Source: Mustelus asterias (Eukaryota). Taken from it: a stretch of 64,000 bases of DNA. The stretch lies in the NCBI RefSeq assembly GCF_964213995.1, contig NW_027590117.1, positions 1,240,001-1,304,000 on the forward strand. Direction: 5' to 3'. The stretch's first letter is position 1, and every line of letters starts with the position of its first letter. The notes under the pieces were generated by a model. That model had not been told where the DNA came from and made no database searches. It saw only the letters and a list, made by a program, of their open reading frames with translations. This document shows, one piece after another, positions 9,271 through 52,454 of the stretch. Both the position numbers and the translations under genes were made by a program.

Positions 9271-10005
9271 CAGAGGAAAATATATCATTCTCCAACTGCG
9301 AAATTCTTCCTTGTTGTCGATAATGCACCGGGATAGACTCGGTATGAAGCAAACTGAAGGATTTATAAAAACCTTGATTCTGACACCATGTCGTTCAATT
9401 ATTCACTTGAGCTCAATATAGAGAGGGAAATGAAAACATCAGTAAACACATCAGAAACAGATCAATCCACCGTGACAATAACTCCATCTCTGACTCCCTG
9501 CTGCCAGGAAGCAGCCCTTTCACTGATCCTGTGAGCTTGTGTGTTAAATCTGAATGGGCTTGAGAGAAAAGGGACAGAGATCGAGTCTAACGCACTAAGT
9601 GGAGGAAGATAGACTTCAAATCCTCTCTGTACCTGTAACAATCTGTGTAAGAATGGAATAAAGTCTTAGTTTGCACAGATGGTTATTTGCTGCACAAAAA
9701 ACGGCGCAAATGATGAAATTGTTGATTAACTGAAATCAGAACCCGAGTTCCAGATATCAACTATTAATAAAAAACAGCAACTTGCATGCATTAAAATACT
9801 GCCTGTGACAATACTATCGTAACGTGGATGGTGTATTCGCCTGATGAATTCCTCTATCTGCTGCGAGACTGATGGGGTCTATTTACTATCGTACACAGGG
9901 GGAACTCCGGATTGATAAAACAAAGCGGGAAACAGCTGGACTGTGAATAGCAGCGCAGCATCTGAGGGGCAAACAATAGATCGCCCTTTTCCAGAAAAAG
10001 TGAGT

Positions 10006-10021
10006 GGCTCTGAAAAGAGCC
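10006..10021 (-). terminator. Histone 3' stem-loop (H2A)
   Basis: GGCTCTTTTCAGAGCC followed by a purine-rich HDE-like element (GAAAAGGGCGA). Confidence 0.95.
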
Positions 10022-10051
10022 TTTGGGTTATCAGATTAAAGAATGGTCGCT

Positions 10052-10501
<450 letters not shown>

Positions 10502-11541
10502 TTATAGCTCCGGGAGGAATGGAGGTGCGGACATTGCTGATTGGTCACTTTGTTGCTGCCTCTCAGCATCTTGTTCATATGACCAATCAGAAATCTGCTT
10601 AACTCACCAATCCGGAGAGCCCACGGAGTGAGGGCGGAAAATAACGGCGCCAAAATCTCAGATTCCAACCGATTTCATTTCAAACTGTAAAAGCCGCCAA
10701 AGCGGAAAGAACAAGAGTTTCGAAAATTATACGAATAGGTAATGGTTAATTAATTTTGAGTAATGTAAGAATCTCCCTTTCTCTCCTTCCCCAGTCTATA
10801 GTTAACCTGTATCTGGCAGTTTCTGATTTTCAGCCTGGGCTTTTCGGAAAATAAGTCGAAAATAACAAAATTTTCACTATTCATTTTTGAAAAGTTCGCA
10901 GATGTATTTATAAAACAAGAAATACATTTCAAATAAAATCTCTCAATAATTAACTGTCTAACAACAAAGTGTTTAAAACATCAGTCTGTGTTTGCACCAT
11001 TTCACATTTTAACCCAAGTTGCAGATTTGCTTTTAGAATCCTGGATCCATTCGGGGTTAATCTCGGCCCTTTTTAAAACTCTCGAACTCGCCGCCAGAAA
11101 GTCTCATTGACATCGTTCTGTAAACGGACGGGATGTTCTCCATATTCGTGAGAATCAAGAGGGGAGTGAACATTTTCGGTGTAAATTGACCATTGCCGAG
11201 ACTGAGGTTCCTGCACAACCGGGGCTGATAGGGAATAAACTGATCGATTATTAAGACCAAACTGGAACAGAATTGGAAGCTGCCACATTTGCTCATTAGC
11301 TCTCTCTCCCTCTCTAAAGTCGGGGAAACGGGCCTCTGAGATCTAAGTGCAGAGGCGGTCGGAAACCAATTAATTAATTAATGAAACATTATTAATCAGA
11401 CGCTGGGCGATTAACTTGCATTACTCAGTACCTATCATTGATCAACAGCAAAAACAACAATTAGATTGTTCGAGACGCTTCAGAGTGAAAGATTAATTGA
11501 AACTAAATGGATGATATAGCTTTTTCAGGGAGATTGTGAGT

Positions 11542-11557
11542 GGCTCTTAAAAGAGCC
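11542..11557 (-). terminator. Histone 3' stem-loop (H2B)
   Basis: GGCTCTTTTAAGAGCC. Confidence 0.95.
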
Positions 11558-11593
11558 GTTGTGTTTGGGATGTTTTTCAGTCCATGGGGAGTT

Positions 11594-11968
11594 TTACTTG
11601 GAGCTGGTGTACTTGGTCACCGCCTTTGTCCCTTCCGACACGGCGTGCTTGGCCAGTTCCCCGGGCAGCAGCAGGCGCACGGCGGTCTGGATCTCCCGGG
11701 AGCTGATGGTGCTGCGCTTGTTGTAATGGGCCAGGCGGGAAGCCTCACCCGCGATGCGCTCGAAAATATCGTTCACGAACGAGTTCATGATGCTCATGGC
11801 CTTGGAGGAGATGCCGGTGTCGGGGTGAACCTGCTTCATCACTTTGTAGATGTAGATGGAGTAACTCTCCTTCCTCGACTTTCGCCGCTTCTTGCCGCCC
11901 TTTACTACCGGTTTCTTAATCACTTTCTTCGCCCCCTTCTTAGGAGCTGTTTTCTTCTCATCCACCAT
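11594..11968 (-). CDS. H2B: Histone H2B, replication-dependent (124 aa)
   Basis: [15 protein letters not shown]...[27 protein letters not shown]...VTKYTSSK; stem-loop downstream. Confidence 0.97.
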
Positions 11969-12154: not shown

Positions 12155-12485
12155 TTTTTTTTTATACTTTTCCAATTCAATCAAATCAAATCCAATTCAG
12201 AGTTTCAACAAGTTGAGACATTTCAGATCCAGGCTGACAAGACAGGACGGGAGACCAAAACCACCCTGTCCTGGGCCTGATCTACATGAGTCAAACTGAT
12301 TGGAGAAGGGGGAGGATCCTCCTCCAAGACTTGAGCTCATTTGCATCTTAGCCAAAAGGCCGAGATGCCGCTTTTAAAAATTGCTTCATATCAAACATAT
12401 GAAACCTCAGCGTAACCTAATGACCTCAACCAAGTGCAGGCAATCCATACTACACTTGATCTTAGCCAAAAGGCCGAGAAGCGAT
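12155..12485 (-). mobile_element. U2 snRNA-headed short retroposon, copy 1 (candidate SINEU-like element)
   Basis: Starts exactly at U2 +1: ATCGCTTCTCGGCCTTTTGGCTAAGATCAAGTGTAGTAT (12485-12447); non-U2 body; internal repeat TCTCGGCCTTTTGGCTAAGAT; A9 tail; homologous to 50316-50648. Confidence 0.85.
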
Positions 12486-39105: not shown

Positions 39106-39135
39106 AGCGACCATTCTTTAATCTAATAACCCAAA

Positions 39136-39151
39136 GGCTCTTTTCAGAGCC
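39136..39151 (+). terminator. Histone 3' stem-loop (H2A)
   Basis: GGCTCTTTTCAGAGCC. Confidence 0.95.
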
Positions 39152-39369
39152 ACTCACTTTATCTGAAAAAGGGCGACCTGGTGTCTATCGGTCAGTTTCT
39201 GCACTGCTATTCACAGCACAGCTGTTTCCCGCTTTGTTCTATCAATCCGTACTATTGACGCATACTGTATTTTAATACAAGTTGCTGTTGTTGATCGGGG
39301 AAACCATCCCAGTGAACTGAAATGATCCTATTTCCAATATAATTGCTTTAAAATGTGATAGTCGCATAG

Positions 39370-39493
39370 ACATTCACAGAGACAATAATTAACACTTTTC
39401 CAGATCCAGTGACTCACTTTGAAAACCGATGAATGTCCTCACAAAGTCAGTCACTGGATCTGGAAAAGTGTTAATTATTGTCTATGCGAATGT
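39370..39493. repeat. Inverted repeat with 35-bp perfect core arms
   Basis: AGACAATAATTAACACTTTTCCAGATCCAGTGACT (39380-39414) and its exact reverse complement (39449-39483). Confidence 0.92.
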
Positions 39494-39885
39494 GCAAGCG
39501 TTCCTGCAATGGCTATATCGGTGTGAGTGGGTTACTGTTTGAGACATGCTTCATATTCTGAACTTAATTGACACAATTTTCAACACTCTCGCTGCGACTC
39601 GAAACACGTGCGGAGAAAGTGGATTTGCGGAAGTATTGCTCGGAAACTGAAATGATCGCAGGTTTAATAAACTACTTTAAAATTAAATTGTGGTAAAATT
39701 GTTAACGGCATCGCTTTTACTCCAACCATCAAAGGATTGGAGATATGAATGACCTCAATGCAACGGAGGGTTAATTGTAACATTGAGAGGTTTCAGTACT
39801 GGAGTCCTGGGAATATTCTGTCCTGGGAATTGAAACACTAGAATCGTTAACAGGAGATCGCAGCTCTTTCATTTGTCGAGTTGGT

Positions 39886-39901
39886 GGCTCTTAAAAGAGC
39901 C
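39886..39901 (-). terminator. Histone 3' stem-loop (H3)
   Basis: GGCTCTTTTAAGAGCC plus HDE GAAAGAGCTG. Confidence 0.95.
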
Positions 39902-39930
39902 GTTGTTGTACTTGGTGCTGAAGCCGGGTT

Positions 39931-40464
<534 letters not shown>

Positions 40465-41641
40465 TCAAATTGTGACCAGGGAATTAATATCTGTAACTCA
40501 GGTTCTAATTGGTTCAGTGGTTTCCTTAACCGCCCCTTTCAGAAATTGGGCCGTTTTTGATGCAAGAAATAACCGTCTGTTTCAAAGAAGACTTTATTCC
40601 GTCCTTATTAATATAACCATTACCAGAAACATTGAAGATTTGAAGTCCATCTCCCTCCACTTAGTGCTTTAGACCCTTTCCCCGCTCTCTGGGCTGTTCA
40701 TTCCCAGAATCTCCCACTGTTCCACTCTATCCCCGTCCCTTTCCTCTCCAGCCCATTCAGATTGCCCTTCCCCTGTCGTTTGTGACATTCGCCGCAGCTT
40801 TCAGCGGAAAGGATCAGAAATCTGTCGCTTCTCTGTGTCCCCCTGAAGCCGGTGTGAAAGGGGTTGAGTCTGTTGTTTGTTACAGAGAGTGACTTCATAT
40901 TTGTCCCGTTTGACATTACTGAATAGAGCCGTTTGCTTCCCGTGGCGGACAAATGAAACCTTTTGTAAAATAATCTTACAGCAGAATATTAATTGAGAAT
41001 CTATTTTTAATAAGTTAAGAATTTGTCTCAATTCCCTTTCCCGCGCTGAAATTGGCGGCATTTCCCCCAATTCAAAATTTCTGCCGGTTGACAGTTGAAG
41101 CCAATGATTGGCTCAATCTTCACATTCGATGCTCTGCGATTGGTTCAGAGCTGCGAATGCGGAGAGGATGGCCAATCAGAAGCAGGTTGGGGCTGGAGCG
41201 GCTCAAACTGCGGGAATTGCGGGTTTGTGAATGACTGAGCGGAAACTGATCAGTTTCACAAAGCGTCAGTTTCAGTGCAGGAAACAACCGTCTGGGGGCA
41301 AATAGCATCACAACTGGGACTGGTTCCAGTGAACGATTCACCGGCTGCTGCTACTAAACTCCGCTATTCCAGAGAAAGCTTTGATAAACTCTACCCAAAC
41401 AGTGATTAAACAGGAGTGATGTGGCTTTTCACTGAGGGCACATGTCAACTGGGGAAAATCAACAACTGCAGAAACGATAGAGCTATTTAGATCATCCAAT
41501 TAAAAATAAAAACAATTTCAATCCCTACTGCAAATGAAATGTTAAATTCAACCTGAACAAAGCAAATATTCATCTCCACCACTGAACAGCCTATCCCAGC
41601 CCCCGTGCCCAGGTCACTGCTCTCTCTGTGAAGCGGTGAGT

Positions 41642-41657
41642 GGCCCTTAAAAGAGCC
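41642..41657 (-). terminator. Histone 3' stem-loop (H4)
   Basis: GGCTCTTTTAAGGGCC (one G-U pair). Confidence 0.9.
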
Positions 41658-41691
41658 TTTGTTGTGTGTTCGGGAGGAAGGTTCCAGTTGT

Positions 41692-42042
<351 letters not shown>

Positions 42043-42609
42043 TCAGGCTCCTTTTATACAGCCCGCCCCGACGTGACTGAGAAAGGCGGAGTGAGAGCAG
42101 AGAGGGGAGGAGACAGAGTGAAGATTAAACACAGAGCGGGAGGGAGGAGAGAGCCGGACTAACACACACACACACAGAACGGCCCCTGATCTTTCAGCTC
42201 CACCTCCAGTTTCTGCAACCGCCAATTTCAACCCGTTTATTAACAATGGAAGCGAAACACAGCTCCCCACACAAACACTACCAGAGCCGCCGTTCACAGT
42301 CAAGAGTTTCCACAAACCCGGAGCTTTGAAATATGGAAGCAAAACAGAAAATGCTGCAAATAATCAGCAGCTCCGGCAGCTTTTGTGAAGAGAGAGACAG
42401 AGTTAACGTTTCGGATCGTGACTTTGTCCGTTTGTGTTTTTAAACCTGGTCCCGGAATAATTCCCAGTCAGTAATATTCCGACCTAAACACAGTCGATTC
42501 TCTAGCAAGAATCTTCCCCCGGAACACCCTCACACACATCTGCTTCTCGCTGTTTGCAAACACTTTATTGAAGCTGTTTGGGGCAATCTCCTGTGTTAAA
42601 ATTAAGGGA

Positions 42610-42678
42610 GTCAGGATGGCCGAGCGGTCTAGGCCGCAGTCTCCTCTGGAGGCGTGGGTTCAAATCCCACTCCTGACA
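42610..42678 (+). pseudogene. tRNA-Leu(CAG)-derived gene lacking the anticodon (14-nt deletion)
   Basis: GTCAGGATGGCCGAGCGGTCT-AGGCCGCAGTCTCCTCTGGAGGCGTGGGTTCAAATCCCACTCCTGACA; 69 nt versus 83. Confidence 0.88.
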
Positions 42679-42694
42679 TTGATGTTTGGCGAAG

Positions 42695-42975
42695 AATTGC
42701 CGTCTCACAGCACCAGGCACTTGGGTTCGATTCCCGGCTGAGGTCTCTGTCTGTGTGGAGTTTGCACATACTCCCCGGGCTTCCTCCGGGTGCTCCGGTT
42801 TCTTCCCGCACACCAAAGTGCCTGTCAGGTTGATTGGCCATGCTAAATTGCACCGGAGTGTCAGGGGGTAAGTCCGGTCAATAAATAGGGTAATGGGGAT
42901 CCGGACTGGGTGGGATTGAGGTCGGTGCAGACTCGATGGGACGATTGGCCTCCTTCTGCATTGCAGGGATTCGGT
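42695..42975 (+). mobile_element. HE1-type SINE, 5'-degenerate
   Basis: GGTTCGATTCCC B box and V-domain. Confidence 0.75.
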
Positions 42976-43215
42976 TAAAAATGAGGCAGGAATGCGGTGT
43001 TGAGCCGCCAGTGTTCCTGTCTCACACTGAATCTAACAGACATCTTTATTATGAGAGAAAGTGGCGATTGAACAAATGTGAAATTCAAATGAAATTCAGC
43101 ATCTGCTGTGTTTTGCTTTAGTCTGAACTTGAAATGATCTCTATTGAGAATGAGCCGGGCCGCGGGACAGGAATCATTTTCTTGCGGGATCAGCTCTTTC
43201 CTGAGAGATGTGGGT

Positions 43216-43231
43216 GGCTCTGAGAAGAGCC
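43216..43231 (-). terminator. Histone 3' stem-loop (H1)
   Basis: GGCTCTTCTCAGAGCC-ACCCA, HDE GGAAAGAGCTG. Confidence 0.95.
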
Positions 43232-43267
43232 TTTGGGTTCAGAGGTTTACAATTTGCTCGGGTTGTT

Positions 43268-45537: not shown

Positions 45538-45609
45538 GCGATGGTGGTATAGGGGTGAGCATAACTGCCTTCCAAGCAGATGACCCAGGTTTGATTCCTG
45601 GCCAACGCA
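45538..45609 (+). pseudogene. tRNA-Gly(TCC), degenerate
   Basis: GCGATGGTGGTATAGGGGTGAGCATAACTGCCTTCCAAGCAGATGACCCAGGTTTGATTCCTGGCCAACGCA; acceptor and anticodon-stem mismatches, T-loop TTC to TTT. Confidence 0.85.
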
Positions 45610-45943
45610 TTGGTCATTTATTTCGAACCTTATCCGCGGCCTCTTGTGTTTTAAACTGAGTGGACAAAAACAGGGCAAACGAAACATTTGACAAGAATGA
45701 AATAAAATGCAGATAGCTTTTTCATTTTTTGTTCGGACATAATTCTTTTTTGATGAAAAATATTGGAATAGAAAAACAAGTCTCTGACCGAATAAATGAA
45801 TTTTCAGCCAGACACAAAGACTCAAAGTAAAAGTAGAAGAACAAATTTCAGCTCCCACACTGTGTGCTGCGCAAAACTGGTGCCTGATGAAGTTAATGTG
45901 AACGTTACTGAGGTGGTTACATTATTCAGACAAATAAGAGCTG

Positions 45944-46175
45944 CCAAAAGATAAAATACTGGAAAATCTTAGCAGGTCTGACAACATCTGTAAAGAAAGA
46001 AAAGAGCTGACATTTCGAGTCCAGATGACTCTTTGTCAAAGCTTTGACAATGGATCGTCTGGACTCGAAACGTCAGCTCTTTTCTCTCCTTACAGATGCT
46101 GCCAGACTTGCTGAGATTTTCCAGCATTTTCTCTTTTGGTTTCAGATTCCAGCATCCGCAGTGATTTGCTTTCAT
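45944..46175. mobile_element. Palindromic element (two head-to-head copies of a retroelement terminus)
   Basis: ~95-bp imperfect arms centred on CAAAG|CTTTG (46041/46042); single-arm relatives at ~5270-5340, ~42340-42420, ~62610-62720. Confidence 0.75.
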
Positions 46176-46189
46176 TCTTTAAAGAAGCA

Positions 46190-46271
46190 GCTGCCGTGGC
46201 TGCGTGGTTAAGGCGATGGATTTGAAACCCAATGGAGTTTCTCCGTGCAGATTCGAACCCTGCTGGCAGCG
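46190..46271 (+). pseudogene. tRNA-Ser(TGA), degenerate
   Basis: GCTGCCGTGGCTGCGTGGTTAAGGCGATGGATTTGAAACCCAATGG...ATTCGAACCCTGCTGGCAGCG; several stem mismatches. Confidence 0.8.
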
Positions 46272-46481
46272 AGTGTGATTGGAAATGTTTGCTTTAGGCA
46301 GCCACAGAATTGCAAATCCTATTTTTTTGGAATGAATTCTTTGGATCTCCAGCATGCTTTCAGCTACATAACAGGAAGGTGAGCTTGGAAAGGACACCTG
46401 AGTGTCCTCAGTCTGGCAAGGACAAGATAGGCCGAATGGGTTCCTTCGGTGCTGTTACATTTCTCTGGTTCTTTCTAAGGT

Positions 46482-46749
46482 CGTGATGTGGAGATGCCGG
46501 CGTTGGACTGGGGTGAACACAGTAAGAGTTTTAACAACACCAGGTTAAAGTCCAACAGGTTTATTTGGTAGCAAATACCATTAGCTTTCGGAGCGCTGCT
46601 CCTTTGTCAGATGGAGTGGAAATGTGCTCTCAAACAGGGCACAGAGACACAAAATCAAGTTACAGAATACTGATTAGAATGTGAATCCCTACAGCCAACC
46701 AGATCTTTAAACCTGTTGGACTTTAACCTGGTGTTGTTTAAACACTTAC
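46482..46749 (-). mobile_element. Short Penelope-like insertion with inverted terminus and 12-bp TSD
   Basis: TCTTTCTAAGGT at 46470-46481 and 46750-46761; empty site in the paralog near 50760. Confidence 0.85.
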
Positions 46750-47009
46750 TCTTTCTAAGGTGCCATGAGGAAAATCAAAGCATGAGCAGAGTGACAAAGG
46801 CATCAACAGGGGCACAAGGACAAAACAAGGTCTCATGTCAGAGGAAGGTTTTTATAAATGACACACAGAACATAAGAAATACATTTATTTAATTGAGCTG
46901 GACCCTGAAAGATGAAACAAACTTCGAACCAATCAGTGCCTGTCTGAGAACTGGCAAGGAATATGCCTGACATTGATCCGGTTCGTGGTGAATTTTTTTA
47001 GAGAATAAA

Positions 47010-47935
47010 AGAATCATACAGTACAGAAGAGGCTCTTCGGCCCATCGAGTCTGCTCTGACACGGAAGAAGCATCTGACCTCCAATCGAATCGCATCTACC
47101 AGCACTTGACCCATGGACCTGAATGTTATGATATGCCAATTGCTGAACACATACTTTTAAAGGATGTGAGGCAACTTGCCTCTATCATCCTCCAAGGCAG
47201 CGCATTCCAGACCGTCACTACCCTTGGGTAAAAAAAAATTTCCGCACATCCACCCTAAACTTCCTGCCCCTCACATTGAACCTATGTCCTCTTTTTACTG
47301 ACCCTTCAACCAAGGGGAACAGCTGCTTCCTGTCCACTCTGTCGATGCCCTCATAATTTTGTACACCTCGATCAGGTCCCCCCTCAGTATTCTCTGCTCT
47401 AAAGAAAACAATCCAAGCCTCCCCAATCTCCCTTCATAACTTACATGTTCCATCCCAGACAGCATCATGGTGAATTTCCTCTGCCTCCCCTCCAGTGCAA
47501 TCACATCCTTGCTACCTTGTGGCGACCAAAACTGTACACAGTACTCGAGCTGTGGCCTCACCAAAGTTCTATGCAATTCCAACATGACATTTTATTGCAA
47601 TCGATGCCCCGATTGTTAAAGGCAAGTGCCCCATATGTTTTTTTTTCACCATCCTACTAACATACCCTTCTACCTTCAGAGATTATGGACAAACACGCCA
47701 ATGTCCCTTTATTCCACAGAACTTCCAAGTGCCATGCCCTTCATTGAATACTTCCTTGCCAAATTATTCCTTCCAAAGTGTGTTACCTCACATCTTTCGG
47801 GGTTAAATTCCATCTGCCACTTATCTGCCCGTTTGACTATCCTGTCTATATCTTCTTGCAGACTAAGAAACTGAGCCTCCCTTTCACCACCCAGCCAATC
47901 TATATGCCATCCGCAAAGTCACTCATCCTACCCCG
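47010..47935 (-). mobile_element. CR1 LINE 3' part
   Basis: LHRTLVRPQLEYCVQFWSP...LRGDLIEVYKI. Confidence 0.85.
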
Positions 47936-47944
47936 TCATTTTTT

Positions 47945-48860
47945 AGGAGGCATGGTTAGTATGTTTGCAAACGACACCAAGATTGGTGGCAGAGTGGACA
48001 GTGAAGAAGGTTACCTCGGATTGCAGTGGGATCTTGATCAATTGAGTCAGTGGGCCGATGAACGGCAGATGGAATTTGATTTAGATAAATGTAAGGTGAT
48101 GTATTTTGGCGGATTAAACCACGGCAGGACCTATTCAGTTCATGGTAAGACGTTGGGGTGAGTTATAAAACAAAGAGATCTCGGGGTACAGGTTCATAAC
48201 TCCTTGAAAGTGGAGTCACATGTGGACAGGGTGGTGAAGAAGGCATTTGACATGCTTGGTTTCAGTGGTCAGAACATTGAACACGGGGGTTGGGACATCT
48301 TGTGAAATTGTACAAGACATTCATAAGGCCACACTTGGAATACTGTGTAGAATTCTGGTCACCCTATTATCGGAAGGATATTAATAAACTAGAAAGAGTG
48401 CAGAAAAGATTTATTAGGATGCCACCAGGATTTGATTGTTTGAGTTATAAGGAGGGGTTGGGTGGACTGGAACTTTTTTTCCCCTGGAGCGCAGGAGACC
48501 TCGAGGTGATATAAAGAGGCCTATATCATAATGAGGAAATAGATAAGGTAGATAGCCAACAGCTTTTCCCCGCAATAAGGGAGTCTAAAACTGGAGAACA
48601 TAGGGTTAAGATGAGAGGGGAGGGATACAAAAGGGTCCAGAAGGGCAATTTATTTCACACAGAGAGTGGTGTGTGGAACGAGTTGCCAGAGGGAGTAGAG
48701 ACGGGTACAATTTTGTCTTTTAAAAGGAATTACATGGGTGAGCTGGATATAGAGGGATATGGACCAAACACGGGCAATAGGGACGAACTTAATGGTAAAA
48801 TTTGGGCGGCATGGACATGTTGTGCCAAAGGGCTTTTTTCCATGCTGTGAACCTCTATGA
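47945..48860 (+). mobile_element. CR1 LINE 3' part
   Basis: FANDTKIGG, LYKTFIRPHLEYC motifs. Confidence 0.85.
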
Positions 48861-49611
48861 CGAGATTTATTGACACAAACAGCAAATCCAAATTATTGTT
48901 CTCTGCTGCCATCTCCTGGCTGAACGCAAGTTGTGCAACAAGGTCACGATTCAAACAAACCTTCACAGATTGGAGTGAAATTACATCAACATGGTCCTTA
49001 CCGATTAACATGATTGCAAAACATGATATTAATCAAATTCCATGTCCCAAGGATCTGCTTTCTGATTGGGCGACCCTGCTCACCCCGATCTATTGGAAAG
49101 TGTAAAACTCCCAGAACGGGAATGTCGGTTACAGAATTCTCTCAGCTGTGATTTCTCTGCCACTTCATTGCTTCGTTCTATAAATACAGAGGGGGTGACA
49201 GAGCCAGGTGGTGTTGTGGTGACTGTGCGAGCATTTGACCAAGGGTCAGTTCCTGACCTTCAGAGTGTTGACTTATTTAATTAGCTATCTCTGGTCAGAA
49301 CAGAAGGGGGAAAGTTCTAAAAAAAATCAGCAAATATTCTCATCATCCATGTGTTTCTGACATAAAATCCAGCTTCAATTTCCGTTCAGTGGAAACTTTG
49401 TTCAAATGAAAGAACAGGCCGCAAATCTAATCAGAGTTATCAGTCAGAAGCAATCGCAAAAAGGTGGCTAAAACTGTCCAGAAAAATGAGACAAGCCAAG
49501 TTCAGGTAAAAAAAAATGTCCCAAGGACATACCTTCTGTCTGCTGAAATCAGAAGTTAAGGTAGTTTTGTAATTATAACTAATGAAAATAACAGTTACAT
49601 GAGGGGAGCGA

Positions 49612-49683
49612 GCGATGGTGTTCTAGTGGTGAGCATAGCTGCCTTCCAAGCAGTTGACCCGGGTTCGATTCCCGGCCATCGCA
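49612..49683 (+). tRNA. tRNA-Gly(TCC)
   Basis: GCGATGGTGTTCTAGTGGTGAGCATAGCTGCCTTCCAAGCAGTTGACCCGGGTTCGATTCCCGGCCATCGCA; fully paired acceptor stem, intact B box; D-stem variant, function uncertain. Confidence 0.8.
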
Positions 49684-49990
49684 TTGGTAATGTCAGCGCC
49701 CTCATGTGGTTTAAACGCAACATTTGACTGCAATGAAATAAAGTGGACTTCATGTTTTCGTTTTATTTTTCGGATGCAGAATTCGGGTTCAACTTGATTT
49801 TAATGAAAGGTTACTGAAAAAGAACAACAAGTCTTTGAACTAGTGAATGAGTTCTGGATCAGAGACAAAGATACAAATTAAAAGGAGACGAACAAATTTC
49901 AGCTCACACGCTGTGCCCTGCATCATTCCGGTGCCTGATAAAGGTCTGTGAATGTTGCTAAGTCGGTTACATCACAACAGCAAATAAGCA

Positions 49991-50068
49991 GCTGCGCTGG
50001 CCGAGTGGTTAAGGCGTTGAGAAATCCAATGGGGTTTCCCCGCGCAGGTTCGAGCCCTGCTAGCAGCG
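49991..50068 (+). pseudogene. tRNA-Ser pseudogene (4-nt deletion in the anticodon arm)
   Basis: ...AAGGCGTTG----AGAAATCCAATGGGGTTTCCCCGCGCAGGTTCGAGCCCTGC...; 78 nt versus 82. Confidence 0.85.
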
Positions 50069-50296: not shown

Positions 50297-50315
50297 CTTT
50301 TGCTACCAAATAAAC

Positions 50316-50648
50316 CTCGGCCTTTTGGCTAAGATCAAGTGTATGGACGGCAGCCCATGGTCGGCCGCACTTGGTCGAGGTCATTAGGTTACGCTGAGGC
50401 TTCATATGTTTCATATGAAGCAATTTTTAAAAGCGGCATCTCGGCCTTTTGGCTAAGATGCAAATGAGCTCAGGTCTTGGAGGAGGAACCTCCCCCTTCT
50501 CCAATCAGCTTGGCTCATGTAGATCAGGCCCAGGACAGGGTGGTTTGGTCGCTCGCCCTGTCTTGTCAGCCTGGATCTGAAATGTCTCAACTTGTTGAGA
50601 CTCTGAATTGGATTTGATTTGATTGAATTGGAAAAGTATTAAAAAAAA
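50316..50648 (+). mobile_element. U2 snRNA-headed short retroposon, copy 2, nested in a Penelope terminus
   Basis: CTCGGCCTTTTGGCTAAGATCAAGTGTA (U2 nt 8-35), body as in copy 1, A8 tail, TSD AAATAAAC at 50308-50315 and 50646-50653. Confidence 0.88.
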
Positions 50649-52454
50649 TAAACCTGTTGGACTTTAACCTGGTGTTGTGAGATTTCTTGCTGTGTCCTTG
50701 GACTGGCATGGCAGGATAGGTTCAATGGCTTCCTTCTGTGCTGTTATTTTTCTATAATTCTTCCTATGGTTCGATGAGAAAATTCATAACATGAACATGT
50801 TTTTTTAAAGCAGCATCAAGGCACAAAGACAAAACACGGTCTCATGTCAGAGGAAGATTCTTATGCAATGGCATAAGAATGCACACAGAGCATTAAATAA
50901 TCAGAATACATTGAATGAATATTTCAAAATGCTGCTTCGATGATATCACATCATGTTCATTCAAACACATTGCAACAAGCTGGTCACTACTGGGCGTTCT
51001 GTATTCTTGGTTATAACAGTTTGGGAATGGAAGGAGCAGGTTCACATCTGCACATTGACAGGGTCAAACTGTGTCTCAGATTGACAGCTCCCAGGACAGG
51101 CTTTCCTCTCGCTCTGTGCTGTGGATTCTCAGGGATTTGTTGGAGTTTCCCGGCTCAGTAACTGTAAAAGCCTCTGAGGCCGGTGCTGCTCCCCAGATTC
51201 AGGGGGCTGCAGCCAATCAGAGCAGTGCTTCATTTAACCCAGAACTGGTTGAAATGATGATATTGTTCACAAGCTGAATTCTATTTGATCAGATGAAGGT
51301 ACAGATTGTGTGCACTCAGTCACTAAACAACAATATCCTGCCTTCACATAGAGTCGATGAGAGTGGTTGGAGGGAGAGACAGAGACAGAGTGAGTTAGGG
51401 CGGCGAGACACAGACGGCCAGACAATGTCTCAGTGACATAAATCCTTGTAAATTCTGGCTTTAGCCAGAAAGATTCTCTTGGAGAAACAGAAGCTGCAGT
51501 ATCAGTTCTCACTGATATTGTGGAAGAGACACATTATTAATCCCACACTCAGGAACAGTGCTGCCTTTTCACAGAAGAGATGGGGAGAGGCAAAATAAAC
51601 TGAATGGTCCAGTTCGAAACAGTGTGCAGGCTCAGAGGGAGTGAGGTTCAGGGAGATATTTGAAAGTGAGATAGTTTCGGACAGTCGTTCGCAAAGTGGA
51701 TGGGATCCTTGGCTTCACAAATGGAAGCACTGAGTGTCCATTGGATCCCTCATAATCCATTGTGAGAAAGGAGGCCATTTGCCCATTGCATCTGCACTGA
51801 CTCGCTGGAAGAACATCTTTTCCCATGGCTAACCCTCTTAACCTACACATCTTGGGTCATTAAGGGGCAATATATCATGTCTAATCTATTTATTCTGCAC
51901 ATCTTTAGTCTTTGGGAGGAAACTGGAGCACCTGGGGAAAACCCATGCAGATACAGGGAGAATGTGCAAACTCCACACAGTCAGCCATGGAGGAATTGAG
52001 CATGGGTCTCTGGCGCTGTGAAGCAGCAGCGCTAACCAGTGCCACTCTGCTGGTGTAACTTTAACAATCCAATTCCTTTCTGAATGCCTCACTTGAAGCT
52101 GCATCACCACATTGTCAGACAATACAACCCAGAGCTGAACTACTCGCTGTGGGAAAGGGTTTTCTCATTATGCTTCAATCACTAACGAAGGGTCAGTAAA
52201 TTGGTCCACGGGGGTGAAAGGGTTTCATATGATATGACCCTTCATAAACTGGGTCTGTATTCTCTGTGATTCACAAGCATGAGAGGCAAAACATTAAAAC
52301 ATACAAGATTCTGAAGGGGTTTGATTTTGTGGACATTGGGAGATTGTGGAAGCTGGCTCAGTGTAAGGATCAGATCATTTCACACTGACATGAGAATACA
52401 TTTCTGCACTCATTGGGTTGTGATCCTTTGACATGCTCCATTGTTGAATACACT

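Follow-up and report, generated by a model that had tools for sequence, protein, structure and literature searches.

The window analysed here, a stretch of 64,000 nucleotides from Mustelus asterias, carries at 12155–12485 (minus strand) an element that opens with the 5′ part of the spliceosomal U2 snRNA. This locus raises the questions of whether the element is a solitary U2 pseudogene or a member of a retroposon family, and of how a sequence headed in this way comes to be transcribed. SINEs with snRNA heads (SINEU) were defined in crocodilians only and linked to Tx1-Mar, near Keno; their transcription was left open because U1 and U2 promoters lie outside the RNA (Kojima 2015, PMC4494074). Here we describe a real, young family of SINEU-type non-coding retroposons with more than 4,000 copies. 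Its RNA probably comes from the external U2 promoter of the genes that host it, and a Keno-like Tx1 LINE probably does the copying, a combined reading to which we assign a probability of roughly 0.6.

Anatomy of the element in the window

The original prediction held that the element begins at U2 nt 1, follows U2 to nt 39 and then passes into a non-U2 body. The head indeed reproduces U2 nt 1–39 letter for letter, and past nt 39 the match of this copy to the U2 model collapses. The tail and A-tract end at 12155, as described; the tail called poly(A) does consist of A residues and is more correctly a short, genome-encoded A-tract. Within the element lies a second U2 fragment that the prediction had missed, and the 4 bases preceding it are those found upstream of type-A U2 genes. 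The last ~70 nt of the body weakly resemble the 3′ UTR of the Keno-like LINE. No target-site duplication is visible at this copy. The features are:

11594–11968, minus strand: histone H2B gene, identified by eye, in the flank outside the element
12155–12163, minus strand: short A-tract of 9 A
12165–12344, minus strand: body, a chain of hairpins in the predicted fold
12345–12368, minus strand: internal second U2 fragment, nt 4–27, 23/24 identical
12414–12439, minus strand: arm predicted to pair with U2 nt 11–36, from the fold of sister copy L006
12440–12446, minus strand: head–body junction, the loop of hairpin 1 and the sequence that marks the subfamily
12447–12485, minus strand: head, exact U2 snRNA nt 1–39, from the sequence and the U2 model
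50308–50316, plus strand: 5′ part of the second copy's 9-base target-site duplication (3′ part 50646–50654), inside an abundant repeat
50316–50648, plus strand: second copy, of another subfamily, 5′-truncated to U2 nt 8

The copy from which the arm was folded differs from the window copy at 5 positions, and the arm is predicted to mask stem-loop I together with the greater part of the branch-point recognition sequence. The expectation of a second, diverged copy in an unrelated context was borne out, the two copies being 91% identical over 334 columns (E = 4e-134) with unrelated flanks.

The surrounding DNA is a mixed cluster of histone and tRNA genes, with 7 histone stem-loop matches, one of them at 11516–11562, and several tRNAs and decayed tRNAs (cluster positions 9982–11968, 24488 and 39131–43236; 25785, 30231, 42610 and 45538–50068). 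The A-tract of the element lies 187 bases upstream of the H2B start codon, beyond the CCAAT boxes.

A young family of dispersed copies

We searched the 3.68-Gb genome with exact patterns. The 23-base tail has 4,134 matches, to which an older subfamily with a different tail end is additional, and a pattern of U2 head plus junction and body has 2,121; the reversed-pattern control gave 0 in each case. The dispersed tail matches and the unrelated flanks rule out both a one-off U2 pseudogene and a segmental duplication of two copies sharing their flanks, and the element is a dispersed family, as had been proposed. A DNA search of the genome returned 1,744 candidates, and the 40 that were scored are 98–100% identical.

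Two samples were examined: the 30 best matches, which are biased to young copies, and 96 copies with a tail, drawn from 90 loci in the order in which they occur on contig 1. Among the latter, 16/96 start at U2 +1 and 71/96 at nt 1–17. Target-site duplications of 8–28 bases (median 15) flank 60 of 131 copies, against 1/131 in a swapped-flank control, and two copies (L113 and L132) have 5′ inversions. The original prediction had looked for high copy number, for 5′ ends at U2 +1 and for duplications, and all three were found; the family spreads by retroposition. No extra 5′ base precedes the head in 11 of the 14 full-length dispersed copies with a duplication, and the −1 position of 31 dispersed copies shows no excess of a cap-derived or U2-upstream base.

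In a tree of 134 copies the subfamilies cluster by junction sequence, and within a subfamily the junction is constant across many copies. Divergence from the majority sequence of the copy's own subfamily is 1.1–4.6%. The family is young, since 14 of the 30 best matches are identical over 305 bases. The variation among junctions sits in a hairpin loop and need not reflect separate insertions into U2. The chimeras at L032 and L033 (C1:112.24 Mb) and L227, in which the internal U2 fragment extends as U2 to about nt 94 or runs into the junction of another copy, suggest template switches at this fragment. Extra U2 fragments 5′ of the heads of L178, L179 and L222 show that template jumps also happen.

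The copies are not scattered at random with respect to one another. A relative lies within 100 bases downstream of 16 of the 96 sampled copies, and exact tail-to-head joins number 353 genome-wide, where <0.2 would be expected. Existing heads contain no insertion at nt 37/38 (0 in >2,000 heads), which indicates that the site needs U2 sequence downstream of nt 38. To define the nick motif we removed from the 60 duplications the 8 that follow another tail. Of the remaining 52, 46 begin with A, and AG(C/T)|A, the core of the U2 target site, is found in 13/46 compared with a background of 4.5% (p = 7e-8). The motif, five bases long, does not suffice to account for the many tandem joins; these may reflect recruitment of the enzyme by the head or repeated use of hot sites.

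The SINE and the LINE also share a few recurring positions in the tail of one abundant repeat (L012, L079, L125, L193–L196, L210 and window position 50308), which we take to be CR1-like. By analogy with Mariner-N4, a target of crocodilian SINEU, this repeat tail is a possible secondary target.

Copies inside U2 genes and a Keno-like LINE

A U2 pattern search gave 76 places, mainly a type-A array on contig C24 and a type-B cluster on C21. Intact units of both types score 174–190 bits on the U2 model, so the intact neighbours of the promoter-backed copies described below are true U2 genes. Eight element tails join directly to U2 nt 39, compared with 0.03 expected; these 8 are the only tails, of more than 4,000, that lie within U2 sequence. 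PMC4640811 gives the same position as the junction of Utopia and Keno. Both kinds of U2 gene, type A and type B, host copies at the Keno site.

The arrays themselves have a varied structure. The second, type-B gene, at L071–L074 (C21:28.05–28.08 Mb), is a very compact tandem unit of ~440 bases that is heavily invaded by the LINE described below and has ~87% identity to the main U2 downstream of nt 38; retroposition has carried pieces of this unit, promoter included, to C1, C8 and C14. In L063–L065 (C24:43.02–43.05 Mb), several main-array units (3/5 in L063) have a small duplication–deletion scar at nt 19–48, at the target of the LINE, and are probably inactive. At L061, L062 and L070 (C24:44.81–44.94 Mb), an amplified 8-kb unit contains a single intact U2 gene together with a LINE headed by U2 and the 3′ part of a U2 sequence, and the LINE is preceded by an extra piece of U2 nt 13–58 resembling a template jump.

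Five copies of the element lie directly behind a full U2 upstream region: L066 in the type-A main array on C24, L110 on C21, and one copy in each of three type-B units (C14, C1 and C8). In a sixth copy, also on C14, a duplication is followed by 31 bases of U2 upstream sequence. Master loci with promoter DNA upstream and U2 sequence downstream had been predicted, and both parts were found, except that the downstream U2 resumes at nt 39 and not at nt 40. The upstream regions contain a PSE-like block at about −63 to −41 that is weakly common to the two gene types (p = 0.016). Its tentative assignment as a PSE follows from the weak match between the types and from its position, which is given for snRNA genes in PMC4494074.

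Two of these promoter-carrying units are themselves retroposed. The C14 unit, composed of U2 promoter DNA and copies, ends in a SINE tail and has an 18-base duplication at its flanks, and the C1 unit ends in a LINE tail within a duplication of ~10 bases. These flanks and tails indicate that transcripts reading through type-B arrays served as templates for retroposition, by which promoter DNA reached other loci. Some of the SINE copies inside the two units may have arrived later.

One dispersed copy may preserve a trace of its origin. In L180, a 16-base duplication is followed by 7 bases that match type-A U2 upstream DNA and then by U2 +1. L180 and the array copy L066 belong to the same subfamily and have in common a rare tail variant, present in 2/155 copies examined and at 5 places in the genome against 4,134 for the usual tail. 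The other three places belong to other subfamilies, and the change therefore recurs about once per thousand. L066 has lost the internal U2 fragment and decayed.

We also looked for an active master among the U2-hosted copies by tree and by private variants, and found none: 0/6 of the full-length copies tested behind U2 upstream DNA match their subfamily, and a young promoter-backed copy on C14 has 3 private changes that are present in 0/29 sampled relatives. The promoter-backed copies could be dead daughters, and the U2 arrays may be collapsed in the assembly or polymorphic.

The failure to find a U2-hosted master among the six copies tested would fit another reading, modelled on the crocodilian elements, in which RNA would be made from unrelated upstream promoters or tandem neighbours, the U2 head would be renewed by template jumps onto U2 snRNA or by trimming at +1, and the copies in U2 genes would be by-products of the target preference of the LINE. 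Such a scheme would also accommodate the extra U2 fragments 5′ of three heads and the 353 tandem joins, and flank-driven transcription with template switching is what Kojima proposed for SINEU (PMC4494074). However, each subfamily keeps its own junction over many copies, unlike the products of independent jumps; nothing extra precedes the head in most full-length copies, and the clearest case of an extension consists of DNA from upstream of U2; and L180 is linked to L066. We consider this reading unlikely. Transcription from the U2 promoter, taken by itself, is likely.

The partner of the SINE is, with good support, a Keno-like LINE. As the original prediction had anticipated for a Keno-type partner, a 5.3-kb LINE has the same U2 junction as the SINE, and it alternates or stands in tandem with the SINE in the U2 arrays. 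It encodes a ZCCHC3-type ORF1 with a zinc knuckle, and APE, RT and zf-RVT domains; the copies examined are frameshifted. We call it Keno-like by its APE–RT build and by its insertion such that U2 resumes at nt 39, the protein atlas having given only generic APE–RT clusters. Eight exact LINE 5′ ends bear a U2 head, 5 of them outside the arrays and four of these five in one duplicated context, and in one array copy a 14-base duplication is followed by a restart at U2 −2. The LINE is also dispersed, with 1,024 candidates whose best matches are 97–99% alike. Its U2 specificity is relaxed rather than strict, 3 of the 30 best LINE 3′-end loci lying in U2 genes, and 4 of 25 distinct LINE 3′ flanks are a SINE head.

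The tails of the two elements, whose comparison had been proposed as a check, are alike but weakly so (p ~0.01–0.02; 16/25 tails at p < 0.05, one of them a self-match). An origin of the SINE by internal deletion of the LINE (a SIDE) was rejected on account of this weak tail match and the lack of any sense-strand match to the first 700 bases of the LINE. The weak tail likeness, the existence of related Tx1 3′ ends with 70–89% identity, and a dispersed motif of only ~5 bases would fit a division of labour in which the U2 promoter drives transcription but a different family, Tx1 or L1, does most of the dispersal and the Keno-like LINE makes only the U2-site insertions. We think this very unlikely, because the Keno-like LINE is itself dispersed with little divergence among its best matches and has the same habit of inserting upstream of heads and the same hot spots in the abundant repeat.

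Transcription, folding and relation to known elements

A simple pattern search found no Pol III A or B box in the element, and no tRNA match covers it. Runs of T at nt 15, 106, 129 and 226 of the element argue against transcription by Pol III. The body contains an octamer at nt 140, a CCAAT at nt 183 and a PSE-like 10-mer near nt 245, and these motifs, together with the amplification of many subfamilies and the commonness of tandem arrays, might suggest an internal promoter, such that any full copy or upstream tandem copy could be a source. This is very unlikely: besides the missing boxes and the T-runs, which would stop Pol III, the octamer coincides with the point where the internal U2 fragment is broken and seems fortuitous, and alignments of the body to U2 upstream DNA are not significant on the sense strand. 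For the last reason a U2 promoter captured within the body is likewise not supported. By eye the element has no Sm site, and a TMG-cap pull-down may consequently miss its RNA. A look-up in sequencing runs listed 11 rows from 7 studies, mostly with small shares, and no RNA run among them.

The RNA is predicted to be strongly folded. The sister copy has a z-score of −8.25, and one copy from each of 7 subfamilies gave values of −4 to −10. In the model, hairpin 1 pairs U2 nt 11–36 with the next 26 bases of the body, and 4/6 variable pairs stay paired. Covariation is thin: 34/111 pairs vary among the 7 subfamilies, of which 10/34 are kept in all and 3 are compensatory.

Substitutions were counted in 120 of 153 aligned copies, after dropping 33 unassigned rows, CpG sites and variants above 25%. 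A>G changes outnumber T>C (145 to 84, rate ratio 2.3, p = 5e-10), are most frequent after U, and remain in excess without the top copy (p = 8e-7); the LINE control gave 6 and 8, respectively (25 LINE 3′ ends, 5 duplicates dropped). Two hyper-mutated copies have 20–24 and 11–13 A>G changes with 1–2 T>C. The excess would fit ADAR editing before reverse transcription, as would its maximum after U, given the neighbour preference of ADAR. Predicted pairs show no enrichment of A>G changes (15 against 20 per 1,000, p = 0.13), and a strand skew is seen in C>G and A>C as well.

The cycle that we propose from these sequence comparisons would run as follows. The endonuclease of the LINE would place its nick between nt 37 and 38 of U2 genes and, with a looser preference, at AG(C/T)|A sites in other DNA. 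A copy placed in a U2 gene with a clean 5′ join would be read from U2 +1, its head being the host gene's own 5′ part, whereas dispersed daughters, lacking a promoter, would mostly be dead ends, and the family would survive by re-entry into U2 genes. The fold-back arm would hide the spliceosomal part of the head, and the hairpin RNA would be edited by ADAR before being copied. A difficulty is that the host transcript should continue to the U2 3′ end, yet copying starts at an internal A-tract. The account in its fullest form is of a SINE that borrows both promoter and head from a spliceosomal host gene, persists only through re-insertion into U2 genes by the Keno-like LINE, conceals its U2 part with a fold-back arm and destroys its own target while its head draws insertions just upstream, with ADAR edits becoming fixed in new subfamilies; in our judgement it stands at about even odds.

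On this account SINEU would have arisen a second time, independently and outside the crocodilians, and the way in which these elements are transcribed would be explained. The family also suggests how SINEs in general could do without an internal promoter, namely by riding a site-specific LINE into a multicopy RNA gene. With a young family, copies behind U2 promoters and an identifiable partner, the question of SINEU transcription becomes directly testable. The system further offers a U2-site endonuclease with thousands of off-target footprints, heads that strongly attract new insertions, and A-to-I-like editing recorded in genomic copies.

The family resembles SINEU-1, -2 and -3 in being non-coding and shorter than 500 bp, with a U2-derived head, an A tail, internal oligo-T and no internal Pol III promoter, and in having many copies with duplications, repeated addition of the snRNA head and tandem copies around a duplication, as reported for SINEU (PMC4494074). 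The shared U2 junction and the head-adjacent habit point to mobilization by a Tx1-clade LINE, here a Keno-like one able to carry the same head. In contrast, crocodilian SINEU prefers Mariner-N4_AMi, has no reported copies in U2 genes and shares no tail with a LINE, whereas here U2 genes harbour copies at the Keno site, with upstream DNA in front of them; this residence sets the family apart from described SINEU. Because the described layouts differ, the family is probably of separate origin. Our literature searches, which took in open-access papers but not Repbase Reports, Dfam or subscription journals, turned up neither this family nor a SINEU from any non-crocodilian; PMC5786205 and PMC5381603 repeat the SINEU account, and PMC4758252 adds no further case of a snRNA-headed SINE.

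Keno and Utopia have the same 3′ junction at U2 nt 39 (PMC4494074, PMC4640811), and the partner LINE has the APE–RT build of Keno. The element differs from them in being non-coding and not a LINE internal deletion, and both it and its partner are mostly outside U2 genes. The SIDEs of R2 (Eickbush 2012, PMC3414825) are likewise non-autonomous elements at the site of their partner in a multicopy RNA gene, 28S rRNA, with which they are co-transcribed. They self-excise by a ribozyme and derive from R2/R1 ends, whereas the body described here does not come from the 5′ and 3′ ends of its partner, and the element keeps the 5′ part of its host as a head and has spread to thousands of outside sites. 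Classical Pol III SINEs have a tRNA, 7SL or 5S head with an internal promoter, which this element lacks. Finally, U6–L1 chimeric retrocopies and tailless snRNA pseudogenes also combine a snRNA 5′ piece with other sequence between flanking duplications (PMC4494074), but these are one-off template switches, whereas the junction and body of this element are inherited in subfamilies of many copies.
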